Shown here piece by piece: positions 1-4,475 of a stretch of 4,475 nt of DNA (position 1 is its first letter; the number at the start of each line of letters is the position of its first letter). Position numbers and translations under genes: made by a program. Location: the IMG/VR virus record IMGVR_UViG_2565956708_000012, one strand, 5' to 3'. The notes under the pieces are model-generated. The model ran no database searches and was not told where the DNA came from. It worked only from the letters and a program-made list of their open reading frames with translations. Origin of the DNA: a virus. Lineage: Duplodnaviria; Heunggongvirae; Uroviricota; Caudoviricetes.

Positions 1-186
1 CTTTACAAAGCGGAGGTAATACACCGTAAGAGCTGGAAAAACCGTGCAGAAGTGGAACTGGCCACACTCACGTGGGTGGACTGGTATAACAATCGACGAT
101 TGCTGGAAAGGCTGGGCCATACTCCTCCGGCAGAAGCAGAAAAAGCTTATTATGCTTCCATCGGAAACGATGATCTGGCAGCCTGA
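1..186 (+). CDS. IS3-family transposase OrfB (integrase/rve domain), C-terminal fragment
   Basis: Open frame from window start to TGA at 184..186, translating as LYKAEVIHRKSWKNRAEVELATLTWVDWYNNRRLLERLGHTPPAEAEKAYYASIGNDDLAA. The WxxWYNxxRxHxxLGxxPPAE motif is a typical C-terminal signature of IS3-family OrfB. Confidence 0.85.
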   Translation, partial: LYKAEVIHRKSWKNRAEVELATLTWVDWYNNRRLLERLGHTPPAEAEKAYYASIGNDDLAA

Positions 187-228
187 GTTCACAGATAAAA
201 CACTCTCCAGGAAACCCGGGGCGGTTCA
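1..228 (+). mobile_element. IS3-family insertion sequence (IS629/IS1203-like), right end, 5'-truncated by window edge
   Basis: Frame-1 translation of 1..186 gives an IS3-family OrfB C-terminus, and the element ends at ...CCCGGGGCGGTTCA (228). The last 25 bp (204..228) are the inverted complement of 4382..4406, matching 23/25. The IS629 name is from memory, not a search. Confidence 0.85.
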
Positions 229-462
229 GAGTAGCTTACGAAGCTTACCATCAGCGGCAACCATGTTCATATGAACACAGTTGAATTTGCTAATCTGCTT
301 CATGAGTTTTGTTTGCTGCGTTGACCAGCTCATTCCGAGGTTTTCAACGATTGGCTTCATCGCAACATATGCAACTCCGGCAGCCATGGCGGTGATAATT
401 TGCTGACCGTTGAATGGCACGTAAGAGGTGTTCACTGCTTCTAAAATTGCTATACTATTCAT
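226..462 (-). pseudogene. ant: Antirepressor (Ant/AntA-like) N-terminal fragment, 3'-truncated by the IS insertion
   Basis: ATG at 462..460 sits 9 nt after a GGAG (complement of 473..476). The 78 native codons ([44 protein letters not shown]...) resemble an AntA-type antirepressor N-terminus. The frame ends in a TGA formed by the IS terminus (complement of 226..228), and Ant proteins are normally several-fold longer. The 528 GTG start in the ORF track is an unsupported upstream extension. Confidence 0.55.
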
Positions 463-545
463 GTTGGTTTTTCTCCACGGATTTACCGACAACCGAAGCC
501 CTGACTGTTCCAGCAGTTGGGGCTTCACTGTTTTGATTTCTTTGC
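463..545 (+). ncRNA. Putative sar-like antisense RNA covering the ant ribosome-binding site
   Basis: Extended -10 TGcTATACT at 448..456 on the + strand predicts a start near 463. The transcript would be complementary to the ant SD and start region and end at the 495..526 hairpin plus T-rich tract. This is inferred from sequence and the P22 sar paradigm only. Confidence 0.25.
495..545 (+). terminator. Hairpin with downstream T-rich tract (intrinsic terminator candidate, + strand)
   Basis: A 13-bp stem (495..507 pairing with 514..526, two G-U wobbles, loop ttccag) is followed by actgTTTTgaTTTcTTT at 527..545. The T tract exists only in the + orientation. Confidence 0.35.
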
Positions 546-694
546 CGCATCAAGCATCACTTCTGAAAACGTGCGCTTGCCACTGAATACTCTTTCTCTT
601 CTCAATTTTTCGTTCGTGCCAAATGATTCGCCATGAACAAAATTTGGTCTTAAAATGGTAATCGCAATCTCTTTGACTACTGCATCCAAGCGAA

Positions 695-847
695 TCACAC
701 CGTTACCCCCTCTCTCTTCAGGCTGTCTATCAGGCGCTTGATAACCTCTGAGTTAAACGACCTGCACTCTTCCTTTGCCCTGCTACCGATAGCATCCTTT
801 AACGACTGCGGCATCCTTACCAAAATCTTACTTATTTCTTTCTCCAT
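695..847 (-). CDS. arc: Arc-like ribbon-helix-helix transcriptional repressor (50 aa)
   Basis: ATG at 847..845 follows GGAGGG with a 5-nt spacer. The product MEKEISKILVRMPQSLKDAIGSRAKEECRSFNSEVIKRLIDSLKREGVTV fits the Arc/MetJ RHH pattern (basic beta-strand xVRMPxxL, then RSxNSE helix) and P22 Arc length. It lies upstream of and co-oriented with the ant fragment. The 883 start in the ORF track is an unsupported extension. Confidence 0.7.
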   Translation of the reverse strand: MEKEISKILVRMPQSLKDAIGSRAKEECRSFNSEVIKRLIDSLKREGVTV

Positions 848-961
848 GTTACCCTCCACGCAAACAACTCTTTTCGAATACAAAAGATAGCAAAGTGAGT
901 ATATCTAGTCAAAATTTTTTTGCATACACTTTGCTATCAAATTGAATACCAAAGGTGTTAT
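848..961. promoter_or_regulatory. Divergent promoter/operator region between the arc-like and mnt-like genes
   Basis: 114-bp intergenic region. On the minus strand, a candidate -35 TTGACT (912..907) and -10 TATCTT (889..884) with a 17-bp spacer face the arc-like gene. On the plus strand, TTGCAT (920..925) is a possible -35, but the matching -10 is unclear. The region contains the inverted repeat listed next. Confidence 0.45.
886..938. promoter_or_regulatory. Perfect 12-bp inverted repeat GATAGCAAAGTG ... CACTTTGCTATC (candidate RHH operator half-sites)
   Basis: 886..897 and 927..938 are exact reverse complements, with centres about 41 bp apart. The left copy overlaps the predicted -10 of the minus-strand promoter. 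Confidence 0.5.
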
Positions 962-1210
962 ATGGCAAAGGGTGTGTCAATTTCTCCAACTACGGTAAGA
1001 ATCCCTGAATCTTTACGCGAGGCTCTTGCTGTCAGAGCATCAAAAAATGGTCGCTCTGTTAACTCCGAGATCGTCATGATTTTGCAAGCCGCGATTGATG
1101 AAGATAGGTCGCCAAAGTCAGTTGAGTCATTTGCTCAGCAAGAAGCTGATAAATTCAAAGAGGCGCTACTTGAGACGCTAAAGACCATGTATGCTAAGGA
1201 TGAAAAATAA
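962..1210 (+). CDS. mnt: Mnt-like ribbon-helix-helix repressor (82 aa)
   Basis: ATG at 962 is preceded by AAAGG. The product MAKGVSISPTTVRIPESLREALAVRASKNGRSVNSEIVMILQAAID... has an N-terminal RHH (GRSVNSE motif) and a C-terminal helical tail ending ...LETLKTMYAKDEK, the same size and architecture as P22 Mnt as I recall it. It is divergent from arc. The 920 TTG start in the ORF track is an unsupported extension. Confidence 0.6.
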   Translation: MAKGVSISPTTVRIPESLREALAVRASKNGRSVNSEIVMILQAAIDEDRSPKSVESFAQQEADKFKEALLETLKTMYAKDEK

Positions 1211-1746
1211 TGCTGCACACAATTCATTTCTTATGCCCTGTTAACACTGCCACTGTTGGGCAACTTCAGAACCACTGTCTCACCGCATTATCTCAAGGCG
1301 CAACTGAATTAAATATCCATATATCAAGTCAGGGAGGGGAAACTGCTGCTGGCTTTACTGCGTATAACTTTCTTAAGTCACTCCCTGTTACCGTTAGAAC
1401 TCACAACATAAGCAATGTTGAATCCATAGCTAATATCGTTTTCCTGGCTGGCTCAGAACGTTTCGCAAACCCATTATCAAGATTCCTGTTACATCCTCTA
1501 TTATGGTGCTTTGCCTCCCCAGCCGCCGACCATGCCAGATTGAGAGAGTACGGGAAATGCCTCGATAACGATCTTGATCGCTTCGTTGAGACGTTCAATA
1601 TCGACATCGGAACCCATATTAGGTGGGCATCCCTGATAGCAGACTCGACCATTTTGGATGCTAACAAGGCTCTTGAGCATGGCATAATTAATTCCATAAA
1701 AACTGCAAGGCTGGCATCCAATCAGGCAAACTGGTGGGTTGTTTGA
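1210..1746 (+). CDS. ClpP-fold (peptidase S14-like) serine protease homologue, 178 aa
   Basis: The start overlaps the upstream stop (TAATG at 1208..1212). By eye the translation aligns with E. coli ClpP: NIHISSQGGETAAGFTAY vs YINSPGGVITAGMSIYD, SNVESIANIVFLAG vs GQAASMGAFLLTAG, LLHPL vs MIHQP, and LEHGIINSI vs VEYGLVDSIL. Candidate Ser/His/Asp triad positions are occupied. It lacks the ClpP N-terminal segment. Confidence 0.6.
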   Translation: MLHTIHFLCPVNTATVGQLQNHCLTALSQGATELNIHISSQGGETAAGFTAYNFLKSLPVTVRTHNISNVESIANIVFLAGSERFANPLSRFLLHPLLWCFASPAADHARLREYGKCLDNDLDRFVETFNIDIGTHIRWASLIADSTILDANKALEHGIINSIKTARLASNQANWWVV

Positions 1747-1777
1747 TGGGTAAATCATGATTACTCCTTATAAAAAA

Positions 1778-1796
1778 CCCACCTGACGGTGGGTTT
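1778..1796. terminator. Bidirectional intrinsic terminator between convergent genes
   Basis: aaaaaaCCCACCtgacGGTGGGttt: a 6-bp GC-rich stem (1778..1783 with 1788..1793) and 4-nt loop, flanked by an A tract upstream and a T tract downstream. It sits between the ClpP-like stop (1746) and the YafO-like stop (1795..1797). Confidence 0.6.
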
Positions 1797-2244
1797 AGTC
1801 AAACATAGTGTTTCTAAAGTCTCTCGCATACCCTGCTAACACTCTCATTCTATTATGATTGTTAGCAGACATGTGAGCTACAGGATGAAAAAGAGCAATC
1901 AATGAATACCTGTTCTCATCAAAAAGATTTTGTGCATAAACGAGAGCGGTATTGGATGTTTTATGCCACTGCAACTTTTGCGGTGTGCTGATATCTGTGC
2001 CATTTTTTATTGGCTCAAATTTATTTTCACCAATTGCTAAATGAAGGTGCATAAGGCCTGCATCTTCAATATCAGGAGGTCGATGATAAGAGGTGTCTCT
2101 GCCAAAATAGCTGGGCAACGTTCCCGTAGACTTGTAGATGATAAAATCATCTACAAGTGTTTGTTTTAAATCAGGAAACTCAACAAAAACCGGGGAGAAA
2201 AAATAGTCAAAACTATCCTGATTATATTCCACGGTTACTTGCAT
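1795..2244 (-). CDS. YafO-family toxin (ribosome-dependent mRNA interferase family), 149 aa
   Basis: ATG at 2244..2242 follows GAGG with a 6-nt spacer. The translation aligns with E. coli YafO as I recall it: DFIIYKSTGTLPSYFGRDTSY vs DFISYKRDGVLPDIFGRDALY, HLHLAIGEN vs HIHLANEN, ALVYAQNLFDENRYSLIALFHP vs HLVYCQGAFDEQAWLLIAILKP, and a C-terminal NNHNRMR...ARDFR vs DNNQMHK...AEAFR. Confidence 0.7.
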   Translation of the reverse strand: MQVTVEYNQDSFDYFFSPVFVEFPDLKQTLVDDFIIYKSTGTLPSYFGRDTSYHRPPDIEDAGLMHLHLAIGENKFEPIKNGTDISTPQKLQWHKTSNTALVYAQNLFDENRYSLIALFHPVAHMSANNHNRMRVLAGYARDFRNTMFD

Positions 2245-2252
2245 GTTTTACC

Positions 2253-2819
2253 TCAGTGGAAGTTACCAGAGTGAAACACACGAGTCCCGTGCTCAGCAAG
2301 CGCACGCAAACCAGCCATATCTACGGAACTATCAAAAACAACCGGAACACATGAGCGTTGTTTAATAAGACTATTCAGGTTGGTTACGGCAGATCTGGCA
2401 TCAGCAACAACGATATAGATATCTCTTGCGATCTCTTTAAAATCAGCAGAAGCTTCTTTGAATACCGATTTCATTGCCCCTTCAAGTCCTCTCAATTGAT
2501 GCTCTATCAATCGAGACTTTTCTGGTTCAATGATAGACAACACATTGTCTACATTCTCATCGGTAGCGTTTGCAAGAACACGATAAGCGTATTTCAGCAT
2601 TCGAGACAATTCTTTAATCGAAGACACCGCCTCATGAAGCTCATCATTAGCCCGTTCACTGCTGAATGAGGATTGATGGTAAGCGTGCTGAACGTTATCA
2701 GTAACAACCACCTCACAACTGAACGCAGAAGCTTGCTGTAATAGCAAACCTATTGCGACTCCAGCTTTGGCAGCGTTCAAGCTAAACATTTCATCAATCC
2801 CATTAGTCTCATTGCTCAT
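2253..2819 (-). CDS. Hypothetical protein (188 aa), upstream operon partner of the YafO-family toxin; putative non-canonical antitoxin or regulator
   Basis: ATG at 2819..2817 is preceded by AGGAGG with a 5-nt spacer. The stop at 2255..2253 lies 8 bp before the YafO-like ATG. I recognise no family. The TTG start at 2849 in the ORF track is less likely than the RBS-supported ATG. Confidence 0.55.
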   Translation of the reverse strand: MSNETNGIDEMFSLNAAKAGVAIGLLLQQASAFSCEVVVTDNVQHAYHQSSFSSERANDELHEAVSSIKELSRMLKYAYRVLANATDENVDNVLSIIEPEKSRLIEHQLRGLEGAMKSVFKEASADFKEIARDIYIVVADARSAVTNLNSLIKQRSCVPVVFDSSVDMAGLRALAEHGTRVFHSGNFH

Positions 2820-2886
2820 ACAAACCTCCTTCTTATCGGAGATTATCAATAGCTATGCATCCATTGAATACACGCTATGCGCAATA

Positions 2887-2915
2887 AGTTTACGTCACGT
2901 GATATCATTATGCAA
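2887..2915 (-). promoter_or_regulatory. Candidate sigma70 promoter for the partner/YafO operon, with a palindrome in the spacer
   Basis: On the minus strand, -35 TTGCAT (2915..2910), a 17-bp spacer, and -10 TAAACT (2892..2887). The spacer contains the palindrome TCACGTGA (2895..2902) overlapping GATATC (2901..2906). Confidence 0.35.
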
Positions 2916-2994
2916 CCACCGTTCTATCACCGACTAACTTTACTCCCACTCCTATACATCATCTGGTATCCTGCGCAAAACTAAGGAGGTTGGT

Positions 2995-3345
2995 GTGAAT
3001 GCTCAGTCTGTCATCATGGTTTTCCTTGGGCTGATTGTCGCAAAACTATATCCAGACTGGTGGAAAGGGGCATTAGCTACTGTCGCCATCTATTTGCTTT
3101 TATCCATCGTTAAGCGATCACTCGCTGAGACCGTAAATCAAGCAAAACGTTTCTCATTTAAGAGTTTAATAAACTATGTTACTGGGCTTATTTTTTGCCT
3201 TTCAATTCTGATCGCTTCGGCTTTTTTGCCCGTATCAATAGCTAATTTTTTTGGCGCACCATATGAGGTAGGTTATCTATTCTCTGTTTCCTGTCTTGCC
3301 ATTGCTCTTCTTTACCTGTGGACGAGATCAAAGAATAAAAATTAG
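2995..3345 (+). CDS. Small integral membrane protein, 116 aa, about four predicted transmembrane helices
   Basis: GTG start at 2995 is preceded by a strong AAGGAGG (2983..2989) with a 5-nt spacer. The translation has four hydrophobic stretches (about residues 5-19, 25-39, 58-78, 92-109) separated by short charged loops, with a basic C-terminus. The gene is AT-rich relative to the flanks and divergent from the partner/YafO operon. Confidence 0.6.
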   Translation: MNAQSVIMVFLGLIVAKLYPDWWKGALATVAIYLLLSIVKRSLAETVNQAKRFSFKSLINYVTGLIFCLSILIASAFLPVSIANFFGAPYEVGYLFSVSCLAIALLYLWTRSKNKN

Positions 3346-3362
3346 CCATCCGTGGCTGCCAG

Positions 3363-4381
3363 TTATTGAGCTTCTTTTTGTGATGCCTGTGCGACTCTGG
3401 TGAGCGATTGTGTGACCGTACTGATCGCTCTGTCATATGCTGTGCTACCTTTTGGCGTATTTGCCAGACGTAACAAGGCATTTCGTATAACAGGGCTTTC
3501 GTATGCCTTCGCAGCTCCTCCTACGACACCAGCAGCAGGAACAACAAACGCAGCCGTTTTTAGCATCCCCGCTAATACTGCTGCGTTTATGATGCCACCA
3601 CCAACTAACAATCCATAAAGCTGCTGACCATTTAAGTTTTGAACGTTCGCTTTTGCCGCGTGTCTTGTATCGTTGAGGTATTTAATAACGCCGTCCAGTT
3701 CCTTTCCATGTACGCCTTTAAAGAAAGTTGCTGATTGCTTCCTGTTCCGGTGTAACGCATTAATAAACTTTTCAACACTAATATTTCCAGACGGATCAGT
3801 CGCCTTATCTACAGCATTCTGAACTATGGCTGCTCGTGCGTTTTGCCTACCATTGTCATCCAGAAGCCTGTAAAGCTGAGAACGTTCTGATGGGTTTTGG
3901 CTAAAAACGAGTTTTGTTACATCCTCAGGTGTAGCCTTGCCGCTGGCTATTGCCTTTTGAACGCGCGTTCTTCCCATCATGTCATTGAATCTAGCCCATG
4001 AGCGATCAACCCTAGACATATTGGCAGCTTCTTCTGAGCCTAGTTTTTGGGATACTGCTTTTTTCATATCCGCTGTATATGCCTTGTAGACAATATCGCT
4101 GGCTTTCTGGAGCGTGTCTTTATCAACAGTCTCGTTTGAATTCATGAACCGCTTTCGAAGGTCAGTTCTGTTTTCTCTCGCCAGACGCAGGTCATTGGGT
4201 CCGCTGGTGATATCGTCTTTAAATTGCTGCAAGACTTTTACCGCGGCTCTATCCTGAGATTTGCCCGGGCGGCTTAACACGGCAATCTGATTGTCGATAG
4301 CTTTTACCGTGTTTGAGAGATCGACAGGGGTATCCCCCATAGCGTCAATTATGCGGTTATATCGCTTTCCTGCTGCCTCAA
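3363..4381 (-). pseudogene. Large protein, 5'-truncated by IS insertion; possibly a phage DNA-ejection/internal protein (gp16-like by synteny)
   Basis: The minus-strand frame is open from the TAA stop (complement of 3363..3365) through the IS junction at 4381/4382 and on to a stop inside the IS. The first ATG (4340) has no SD. The product has a glycine-rich hydrophobic segment (LLVGGGIINAAVLAGMLKTAAFVVPAAGVVGGAAKA). The gp16-like call rests only on its position relative to mnt. Confidence 0.4.
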
Positions 4382-4475
4382 TGAACCGCCCCGGGAATCC
4401 TGGAGACTAAACTTCCTGAGAAAGAGGTAAACAGGATGACTAAAAATACTCGTTTTTCCCCCGAAGTCCGTCAAC
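4382..4475 (+). mobile_element. IS3-family insertion sequence (IS629/IS1203-like), left end, truncated by window edge
   Basis: Terminus TGAACCGCCCCGGGAATCCTGGAGA (4382..4406) is the inverted repeat of 204..228. It is followed by an RBS (GAGG) and the orfA start. It has the same orientation as the copy at 1..228. Confidence 0.85.
4436..4475 (+). CDS. IS3-family transposase OrfA, N-terminal fragment (MTKNTRFSPEVRQ...)
   Basis: ATG at 4436 is 7 nt after AGAGG. The N-terminus MTKNTRFSPEVRQ is the characteristic start of IS3-family OrfA (helix-turn-helix protein) of the IS629 group, from memory. Confidence 0.8.
   Translation, partial: MTKNTRFSPEVRQ

Follow-up and report, generated by a model that had tools for sequence, protein, structure and literature searches.

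The question raised by the stretch of DNA analysed here (4,475 nucleotides, hereafter the window) is what kind of control region is formed by its two small genes for ribbon-helix-helix (RHH) repressors beside an ant gene cut by an insertion sequence (IS), and why both repressor genes should be intact next to a broken antirepressor gene. The segment 226–1210 is, with a probability of about 0.85, the immI (immunity I) control region of an Escherichia coli prophage of the P22-like type. Its second question concerns a gene for a ClpP-like protein that is coupled to one of the repressor genes; the conserved operon formed by these two genes is the only lead worth following at this locus.

Identity and layout of the immI module

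The three genes that an earlier note on this DNA had placed in the segment—a truncated ant, arc and the divergent mnt—have all been found at the claimed places (Table 1), each with a match far beyond chance. The 78-residue Ant fragment (Ant′) is indeed Ant-like, exhibiting 71% identity to residues 1–75 of P22 Ant (E 8e-37); the identity to the respective P22 protein is 39% for Arc (E 9e-10), which scores 45.9 bits with the Pfam family PF03869, and 36% for Mnt, in this case over 74 of 82 residues with the C-terminal tail included (E 7e-14). Concerning the subfamily of the two RHH proteins, their best Pfam and solved-structure matches are Arc and Mnt, not the CopG/ParD antitoxins, the top structures being variants of Arc for the former and 1MNT for the latter, and no antitoxin appearing among them. 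It should be noted that DNA binding and regulation by the two proteins are predicted here from the 36–39% identity to characterized proteins.

The host prophage is of the P22-like (Lederbergvirus) type, and its lineage is the one present in an intact form in the ST95 strains S88 and APEC O1 and in the Escherichia phage phiv205-1 (MN340231), the latter being 98.9% identical to the window over 227–1796. The synteny of these intact relatives is gp16 ... mnt / arc–orf57–ant–tailspike, with the tailspike gene coming next after ant in both S88 and phiv205-1. The module is placed in the 'ant moron', i.e. with the ejection gene 16 on one side and the tailspike gene on the other, and this location, as seen in the intact relatives, agrees with the immI-type module proposed in the earlier note. 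The region has been described as a highly variable 'ant moron' with immI, the APEC O1 prophage being listed there (Villafane et al. 2008; PMC2629481); the ClpP-like gene, orf57 and the operators are not named in the parts of that article available here.

With the immI of P22 (mnt / arc–sar–ant), characterized by Sauer, Susskind and colleagues, the module shares the genes, their order and orientation, the genomic position at gene 16 and the tailspike gene, the sar RNA with its promoter, the N-terminus of Ant and the layout of the Pant promoter with the −35 element at the same offset. It differs from P22, apart from the low identity of both Arc and Mnt, in the arc–mnt intergenic region, which is longer by ~24 nt (114 vs 90 nt) and has a 12-bp inverted repeat where P22 has the 17-bp Omnt palindrome, in the extra orf57 between arc and sar, in the truncation of ant, and in what follows mnt—the coupled ClpP-like gene in the window vs orf59a/sieA in P22. 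The immI layout of P22, which has neither orf57 nor the ClpP-like gene, is seen also in epsilon34. As to the gene order suggested previously, arc does lie upstream of ant′, but the actual order is arc–orf57–sar–ant′ rather than arc–ant′. The sar RNA and the 57-codon open reading frame (ORF) were absent from that description.

An immI switch in a decaying P22-like prophage is of a type already known from the maps of the 'ant moron' and matters little as such; the main use of its identification lies in the annotation of sar, orf57, the IS junctions and the defective prophage.

Table 1 Features of the window with their positions and strands
Feature	Position	Strand	Description
3′ end of IS3-family element, presumably IS629/IS1203 type	1..228	+	orfB tail, stop at 184–186; right terminal repeat ends ...CCCGGGGCGGTTCA at 228
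ant′	226..462	-	codons 1–78 (229–462) plus TGA stop (226–228) made at the IS junction
Psar (putative, by position)	427..456	+	inside ant 5′ end; extended −10 TGcTATACT at 448–456
sar antisense RNA	463..529	+	RF00262, full-length model match; complementary to ant ribosome-binding region
orf57 (putative)	525..698	-	57 codons; between arc and sar/ant
arc	695..847	-	Arc-type RHH repressor, 50 aa; first gene of ant operon
Pant-like promoter (predicted)	884..912	-	−35 TTGACT (912..907), 17-nt spacer, extended −10 TGcTATCTT (892..884)
Perfect 12-bp inverted repeat	886..938		GATAGCAAAGTG (886–897) and CACTTTGCTATC (927–938), flanking conserved core AGTCAAAATTTTTTTGCATACAC
mnt	962..1210	+	Mnt-type RHH repressor, 82 aa, C-terminal coiled-coil tail; divergent from arc
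ClpP-like serine protease paralogue	1210..1746	+	178 aa, truncated N-terminus; second gene of mnt operon
Hairpin CCCACC-TGAC-GGTGGG	1772..1797		flanked by A6 and T3; hairpin itself at 1778–1793; read directly from the sequence
P22 gp16-family DNA-ejection gene, 3′ half	3363..4381	-	~339 of 670 codons; phrog_770, phrog_29117
Second copy of the same IS, 5′ end	4382..4475	+	direct orientation; left terminal repeat TGAACCGCCCCGGG; orfA start at 4436 (MTKNTRFSPEVRQ)

The IS copies, the age of the truncation and the mnt–ClpP-like pair

The window is bracketed by two ends of the same IS, for which we take the names IS629 and IS1203 to apply. Both termini, with the terminal inverted repeats beginning TGAACCGCCCCGGG, were read directly from the window; the orfB tail of the left copy matches rve_2/rve_3, and its terminal 79 nt are identical to those of an annotated IS1203 copy. 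The same element is annotated in RefSeq as 'IS3 family transposase, programmed frameshift' and covers ~1.3 kb (locus 3001–4310) in SCU-116. A match of 76 nt between the junction and IS1203 copies of EHEC consists of the IS end and a flank similar by chance, i.e. it marks no shared insertion site, and a composite transposon was rejected as the explanation of the IS-bracketed 4.15-kb segment, which is carried by no plasmid in PLSDB.

Gene 16 is 2013 bp long in S88, where RefSeq names its product 'P22-gp16 family phage DNA ejection protein'. In the window, the second IS has taken away the 5′ half of the gene, the prophage homology ending at 4385, and the prophage is therefore defective and should yield no infectious virions. 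Whereas the copies in APEC O1, S88 and phiv205-1 have the full 300-residue Ant and an intact gene 16, both genes are cut by the IS in the window. Bases 227–4385, i.e. the 4159 bp between the IS copies, are 100% identical to many complete genomes, the intact ST95 prophages of S88 and APEC O1 included, without a single substitution, and the truncation of ant must therefore be recent; at least 80% of the window is contained in 47 of 5,426 genomes.

Both repressor genes are intact, as noted previously, being identical base for base to their copies in the intact prophages. The idea that they have been retained for another role is, however, unnecessary, since so complete an identity means that decay has had no time to occur, and a truncation this recent leaves the intact repressor genes in no need of a special selective explanation. 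The role suggested, control of the ClpP-like gene, would correspond to domestication of the regulators, with selection keeping arc and mnt after the loss of ant as regulators of the ClpP-like gene or of some other cargo. Several ST95 genomes do keep an island of immI, the ClpP-like gene and a YafO-like gene between IS copies with the flanking structural genes truncated or gone, and the ATG of the ClpP-like gene overlaps the stop codon of mnt (TAATG) in a pairing that is conserved. The zero substitutions in 4159 bp nevertheless give no signal of retention beyond recency, and the coupling predates the IS event, being standard in intact phages; the pair is present in the plaque-forming phiv205-1, EC.P3 and PhiR12_1, which makes a new role superfluous. 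Domestication is thus considered quite unlikely.

The conservation of the pair is extensive: in each of the 47 immI-linked loci that were examined, the ClpP-like gene lies 3′ of mnt, the stop/start overlap is present in every case inspected, and the gene is found, with at least 97% identity, behind at least seven Mnt specificity types, its hosts including intact phages and one lambda-like siphovirus. Because the coupling is standard in intact phages and occurs with many Mnt types, it is best regarded as ordinary co-transcription from the mnt promoter with no new role in the window. Being translationally coupled to mnt, the ClpP-like gene would therefore be expressed in the prophage under Mnt-dependent control. 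The hairpin downstream of it, which resembles the terminator of sroH with a score below the threshold, probably ends the mnt–ClpP-like operon and may terminate the convergent YafO-like operon as well.

The ClpP-like protein matches PF00574 with 44.4 bits (cut-off 20.2) and falls far below the NCBIfam cut-offs for ClpP equivalogs. A canonical ClpP has a Ser–His–Asp triad and docks ClpX/ClpA by means of N-terminal axial loops. Its closest characterized relative, matching over the full length, is PpClpP1 from Pseudomonas plecoglossicida (PDB 9UXT; E 1.6e-35; PMC12900304); in the alignment, Ser72 and His95 coincide with its catalytic residues Ser73 and His96. Both proteins have a truncated N-terminus, ~25 residues being missing in the ClpP-like protein, and a non-canonical third position of the triad, occupied by proline in PpClpP1 vs Ser146, adjoining Asp145, in the window. 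PpClpP1 is atypical, does not bind ClpX and co-assembles with ClpP (PMC12900304); the ClpP-like protein differs from it in its phage origin and in the coupling of its gene to that of an immI repressor.

An atypical ClpP paralogue that follows mnt across immI specificities, the one in a lambda-like siphovirus included, suggests an undescribed function expressed in the prophage. In about a quarter of the sister modules, the interval from arc to ant encodes a mini-protein similar to the zinc-binding domain of ClpX. It is conceivable, albeit rather unlikely, that a hidden layer of proteolysis is carried by the immI modules of P22-like and lambdoid prophages in enterobacteria, of which the prophage-expressed arm may be the truncated ClpP paralogue translationally coupled to mnt and the infection-expressed arm may be the ClpX zinc-binding-like mini-protein. 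If the phage ClpP were to co-assemble with the host ClpP in the way of PpClpP1, the specificity of ClpXP/ClpAP in the lysogen would be remodelled, and if so, the remodelled proteolysis could serve superinfection exclusion or stabilization of the switch, in the present case outlasting the loss of ant. Among the articles available here, a literature search found no paper joining Arc, Mnt, antirepressor, ClpP and prophage.

The sar RNA, orf57 and the truncated ant gene

The RF00262 model recognized the sar RNA with 83.9 bits (gathering score 43; E 2.7e-17). It directly abuts the ATG of ant at 462, a terminator scan places its terminator stem at 495–526, and the stretch assigned to Psar aligns with the annotated Psar of epsilon34 (L002 4202–4230).

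Concerning orf57, its GTG start overlaps the stop codon of arc (GTGTGA) and is preceded by a Shine–Dalgarno-like run GGGGG. It matches phrog_17642 over the full length (E 1.3e-43), corresponds to the RefSeq protein WP_000620145.1 and has counterparts in the equivalent place in Klebsiella aerogenes and on one metagenome contig; a search for homologues returned near-identical proteins only. The comparison of the window with Klebsiella, counting 3 synonymous and 8 non-synonymous codon changes, exhibits no sign of purifying selection, and the coding status of orf57 is equivocal. In other phages with the same arc, its slot is either empty or occupied by unrelated small ORFs. No match to orf57 was found in Pfam, NCBIfam or PADLOC, hence no toxin family or defence model; the PADLOC models likewise returned nothing for Arc, Mnt, the ClpP-like or the YafO-like protein, and a weak PADLOC match of a 188-residue protein to ZorA (E 0.004) was disregarded.

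These observations bear on the view that the RHH genes could be antitoxins of toxin–antitoxin (TA) systems—arc with orf57, mnt with the ClpP-like gene, or both—instead of immI repressors. The RHH antitoxins of type II TA systems (CopG/ParD/FitA) do resemble Arc and Mnt in the fold, in the small size and in the overlap with a downstream ORF, since each of the two RHH genes overlaps the next gene in the style of a type II TA operon; moreover, Mnt passes the threshold of FitA-like_RHH (34.4 vs 27 bits) and Arc gives weak matches to FitA/VapB antitoxins. The best family and structure matches are, however, those to Arc and Mnt; the Arc consists of only 50 residues and is devoid of a toxin-binding extension, and the Mnt has the full-length architecture common to P22 Mnt. 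The orf57 slot is variable or empty next to the same arc, orf57 itself matches no toxin family, and more distant homologues of the ClpP-like protein occur with no RHH neighbour. With no recognizable toxin and with sar and ant in a phage immI locus, the TA assignment is very improbable, and the immI repressors remain the preferred identity of both proteins.

As for the ant gene itself, its ORF spans 226–528 on the minus strand, homology supporting the ATG at 462. In the alignment of the junction with phiv205-1 and epsilon34, the homology to ant ends at 227/228, the end of the IS terminus ...CCCGGGGCGGTTCA, and the native codon 79, TGC, is changed to TGA. The third base of this stop codon, the complement of T226, comes from the IS alone, and the other two, the complements of C227 and A228, are common to the IS and ant. 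The earlier claim that the IS terminus supplies the stop after codon 78 is thus borne out by the TGA seen at 226–228. Whether the event was an insertion, as was also claimed, is a different matter: the IS does abut ant, but the cut may represent an IS-associated deletion instead, the outer side of the IS lying beyond the window. Complete genomes with a prophage from this lineage, SCU-116 among them, carry the same IS between a C-terminal fragment of the tailspike gene and fragments of ant of ~157, 167 and 256 codons. The junction of the left IS with ant is present also, independently, in another IMG viral contig (L017), the gene 16 of which is intact. Neither of the two exact IS junctions occurs in complete E. 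coli genomes, the full-coverage matches being joined pieces with other junction positions, and the exact string of the left junction was not found in the GTDB species representatives.

The intact allele of ant in E. coli S88 encodes 300 residues with both the P22_AR_N and P22_AR_C domains. Ant′ matches P22_AR_N (PF10547) with 66.5 bits, covering only the profile positions 2–66 of 115, and it has lost 74% of the length. Because ~43% of the N-terminal domain and the whole C-terminal domain have been removed, no functional antirepressor is expected, and its inactivation, asserted previously, appears probable from the domain content. That Ant(1–78) might still be active, as a mini-antirepressor or a dominant-negative decoy by which the IS event modifies the switch, is very improbable: the ORF is in frame with its start, ribosome-binding site, sar control and promoter intact, but so partial a domain lacking P22_AR_C is unlikely to fold, and the other truncations in the lineage resemble unselected end-points of deletions.

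The arc–mnt intergenic region and the proposed working of the module

By homology with P22, the immI module would work as follows. A strong leftward Pant would drive arc, orf57 and ant, with Arc, the first product, turning Pant off soon after infection; a full-length Ant would inactivate the primary repressor. The sar RNA, transcribed from the promoter within ant, would pair with the ribosome-binding region of ant and block its translation. In the lysogen, Mnt made from the divergent promoter would hold Pant off, not only in the resident prophage, but also in phages with the same type of immI that enter the cell. On this model, Arc would repress in both directions, and Mnt would repress Pant and raise Pmnt. 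After the truncation, the remaining intact repressors, antisense RNA and promoters would still regulate arc–orf57 and mnt–ClpP-like, and the ant gene of a superinfecting phage with the same immI type would still be silenced.

The Pant-like promoter was predicted from 9 of 12 matches in the promoter scan plus the TG of the extended −10 element. When anchored on the −35 element, it has the same offset and layout as Pant of P22, with 25 of 42 bases identical over 876–917. The consensus promoter scan did not place Pmnt; candidates for it are TGcTATCAA at 932–940, from which the mnt transcript would start near 946, and the P22-like TATCTA at 902–907, with a start near 914.

A P22-type immI has competing divergent promoters, the Arc operator being in the spacer of Pant and the Mnt operator over its start. 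Concerning the operators, the Oarc and Omnt sequences of P22 are absent from the window at up to three mismatches, and the 15–19-bp palindrome seen upstream of arc with P22-like Mnt types is absent from the immI type of the window; the operators of this type thus probably differ from those of P22. The spacer of Pant is identical to P22 Oarc in 14 of 21 positions at the same offset, a score that does not exceed chance when the anchor on the −35 element is dropped. The Omnt-like palindrome CTTTTCGAATACAAAAG (870–886) was rejected as a firm operator, since its left arm varies among relatives with an identical N-terminus of Mnt. With both repressors only 36–39% identical to those of P22 and the operator region built differently, the module would offer a natural specificity variant for studies of RHH–DNA recognition.

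The two arms of the perfect inverted repeat may be operator half-sites, twin extended −10 elements or both. A length of 12 nt was reached in only 1 of 2000 shuffles, and in the haplotypes of the window type the n of TGn, at 890 in one arm and at 934 in the other, is the commonest variable base.

The immI module and its prophage

Two incomplete copies of a single insertion sequence (IS) flank 4.16 kb of P22-like prophage in the window (4475 bases), all 4159 inner bases (100%) being identical to prophages of many complete ST95-type Escherichia coli genomes, including the intact ones of strains S88 and APEC O1. At least 80% of the window is present in 47 of 5,426 complete genomes, and the Lederbergvirus phage phiv205-1 shares 98.9% identity with positions 227-1796. 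The intact relatives exhibit the gene order gene 16 ... ClpP-like gene, mnt / arc, orf57, sar, ant and tailspike, the position of immI being that found in P22 and epsilon34. The region has been named the "ant moron" by Villafane et al., the APEC O1 prophage being listed among its types (PMC2629481). The interval is an immI module, i.e. a known kind of system in a specificity variant, residing in a recently IS-damaged, defective prophage.

Features of the window
Feature	Position	Strand	Remarks
Left IS copy	1-228		transposase tail (rve_2/rve_3 matches); terminus ...CCCGGGGCGGTTCA
Prophage piece	227-4385
immI module	226-1210
ant'	ATG at 462	-	78 codons
sar	463-529	+	antisense RNA, complete
sar terminator stem	495-526
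orf57	525-698		57 codons
arc	695-847		50 aa
Candidate palindrome	870-886
12-bp inverted repeat	886-897, 927-938		perfect
mnt	962-1210		82 aa
mnt/ClpP-like overlap	1208-1212		TAATG
ClpP-like gene	1210-1746
Hairpin	1772-1797		CCCACC-TGAC-GGTGGG; A6 and T3 flanks
YafO-like gene	1795-2244	-	149 aa
phrog_8416 gene	2253-2819	-	188 aa
Membrane protein gene	2995-3345	+	116 aa
Right IS copy	4382-4475		begins TGAACCGCCCCGGG; orfA start

The genes ant, arc and mnt named in the earlier note are all real. The truncated ant (ant') exhibits 71% identity to residues 1-75 of P22 Ant (E 8e-37) and also matches P22_AR_N, whereas the identity is 39% for Arc and 36% for Mnt (over 74 residues, the C-terminal tail included). 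The fragment is thus Ant-like. For the two repressors, the best solved-structure matches are Arc variants and 1MNT, respectively, CopG, ParD and other antitoxins being absent from the matches listed; they do not belong to unrelated RHH subfamilies. The proposed order ant-arc-mnt holds as far as the presence of the genes is concerned, but arc does not directly adjoin ant, orf57 and sar being located between them.

The antisense RNA sar scores 83.9 bits with RF00262 (gathering score 43), and its promoter stretch corresponds to the sar promoter, Psar, annotated in epsilon34. The GTG start of orf57 overlaps the arc stop and its 3' end lies inside the sar terminator. Whether orf57 is a gene is equivocal: it belongs to a PHROG family of unknown function, is also a RefSeq protein and keeps its position after arc in a P22-like prophage of Klebsiella aerogenes and one metagenome contig; on the other hand, the homologue search yielded near-identical proteins only, and of the codon changes between the window and Klebsiella, 3 are synonymous and 8 are non-synonymous. 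Sister phages that share this arc have other small ORFs in the slot, or none.

Insertion sequences and the truncation of ant

The terminal 79 nt of the IS match an annotated IS1203 copy exactly; in RefSeq, the identical element, ~1.3 kb long there, bears the annotation of a transposase of the IS3 family with programmed frameshift. The homology of ant, in the alignment with phiv205-1 and epsilon34, stops exactly at the IS terminus, where the native codon 79, TGC, becomes TGA. Because the last base of this triplet is the complement of T226, exclusive to the IS, the previous statement that the IS terminus supplies the stop after codon 78 is literally correct. The intact allele encodes 300 residues with P22_AR_N at 14-125 and P22_AR_C at 200-272, of which ant' retains profile positions 2-66 of the 115 of P22_AR_N and no more. 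Delivery of P22 DNA requires gene 16. The second IS has removed the 5' half of this gene, leaving ~339 of 670 codons, and the prophage is therefore defective regardless of ant.

It was also suggested that the repressors had been retained for another role. There are, however, no substitutions in comparison with the intact prophages; the IS event is thus recent, and therefore the intact arc and mnt need no selective explanation.

In other genomes of the lineage, complete ones among them (L003 from SCU-116, L091 from FDAARGOS_1301, L092 from AH19K002, and L052), the same IS is found between a C-terminal tailspike fragment (516 or 207 nt) and an ant fragment (471, 501 or 768 nt), junctions that resemble IS-associated deletions whose end-points vary. 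The junction at codon 78 represents a fourth end-point, found independently in one IMG contig (L017) with gene 16 intact. The junctions in the other genomes suggest that IS-mediated deletions around the ant moron are recurrent, the event in the window being either a simple insertion or a deletion, with the outer IS flank outside the window. The two copies in the window flank the 4.15-kb immI-ClpP-YafO island as direct repeats and truncate ant and gene 16, a layout like that of a composite transposon; none of the PLSDB plasmids carries the segment. In SCU-116, the second IS copy is inverted and cuts gene 16 at a different point.

Promoters and operators of the arc-mnt spacer

The spacer between arc and mnt (114 nt) contains a good predicted leftward promoter, TTGACT and TGcTATCTT separated by 17 nt, its -35 element being at the same offset as that of Pant, the P22 ant-operon promoter. 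With the alignment anchored on this element, P22 shares 25 of 42 bases, and the promoter spacer is identical to the Arc operator, Oarc, at 14 of 21 positions, a score at chance level if unanchored; a search of the window allowing up to 3 mismatches found none of the P22 operators. The clearest feature is the inverted repeat, matched in only 1 of 2000 shuffles, which encloses a core also kept in the otherwise different spacer of the PhiR12_1 type. Its arms can be read as extended -10 elements, TGnTATCTT leftward and TGnTATCAA rightward. Because the commonest variable base of each arm among window-type haplotypes is exactly the n of TGn, the pattern favours a role of the arms as putative twin promoters no less than one as operator half-sites. 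Mnt types near that of P22 have, immediately upstream of arc, a palindrome of 15-19 bp; the window type has none. The best candidate, at 870-886, was not accepted as a firm operator, since its sequence differs between phages whose Mnt N-termini are identical.

Clp-related passengers and neighbouring genes

Relatives of the ClpP-like protein were collected from 80 viral contigs, 47 of them with an immI-type RHH gene (L008-L056, L006). In all 47, an Mnt-like gene directly precedes the ClpP-like gene, whose product is at least 94% identical to that of the window in 46 (80% in L049), and the stop/start overlap is present in every locus inspected. The Mnt N-terminal DNA-binding parts are of at least seven types, with a common C-terminal tail. 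The gene likewise follows mnt in phiv205-1 and EC.P3, while PhiR12_1, a lambda-like siphovirus, carries a complete ant-arc / mnt-ClpP-like cassette between tail genes K and L. Since it follows mnt across these Mnt types and phages, the ClpP-like gene is a moron now regularly carried along in the mnt operon. Control by Mnt, proposed earlier, thus applies as ordinary co-transcription only, and not as a result of ant loss. More distant homologues (52-75% identical) adjoin lysis genes, no RHH neighbour being detected with Arc/Mnt queries. Those of L057-L087 (52-58%) neighbour the spanin, endolysin and holin genes that form the lysis cassette of other prophages, and are usually encoded on the other strand; some loci (L079, L083) have an unannotated 182-aa ORF ahead of the ClpP-like gene, on the same strand. 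Two different mnt-like genes precede the ClpP-like gene in tandem in L022 and L028, and in L056 it is split by a ~1.4-kb insertion.

The closest characterised relative is PpClpP1 (PDB 9UXT; E 1.6e-35), whose triad is Ser-His-Pro; this N-terminally truncated ClpP forms tetradecamers and mixes with canonical ClpP, without binding ClpX (PMC12900304). Ser72 and His95 of the window protein align with its catalytic residues, the third triad position aligning with Ser146, beside Asp145. PADLOC defence models gave no match. In 12-14 sister loci, about a quarter (L010, L008, L032, L033, L048 and others), the slot of orf57 between arc and ant holds a Cys4 zinc-ribbon ORF of 60-75 aa, the L033 version exceeding the Pfam threshold of the ClpX zinc finger (PF06689, 43 vs 27 bits), so that a ClpX-ZBD-like and a ClpP-like gene occur together in some immI modules. 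That such passengers, a ClpP paralogue after mnt and a Cys4 mini-protein on the other arm, remodel host Clp proteolysis is conceivable, albeit unlikely.

The hairpin that separates the ClpP-like gene from the convergent YafO-like gene has a sub-threshold Rfam match (19.5 bits) to the terminator part of sroH; it was rejected as an sRNA and is a terminator. The gene for the predicted membrane protein, which could be assigned to no family, occupies roughly the position of sieA in P22; its RefSeq version is shorter, at 330 nt. The YafO-family toxin-like gene (PF13957, 78.9 bits) follows, at a distance of 8 nt, that for the phrog_8416 protein of unknown function, the PADLOC result for the latter being a weak ZorA match only; the two, in the same moron, might form a pair of the toxin-antitoxin-like or defence kind.
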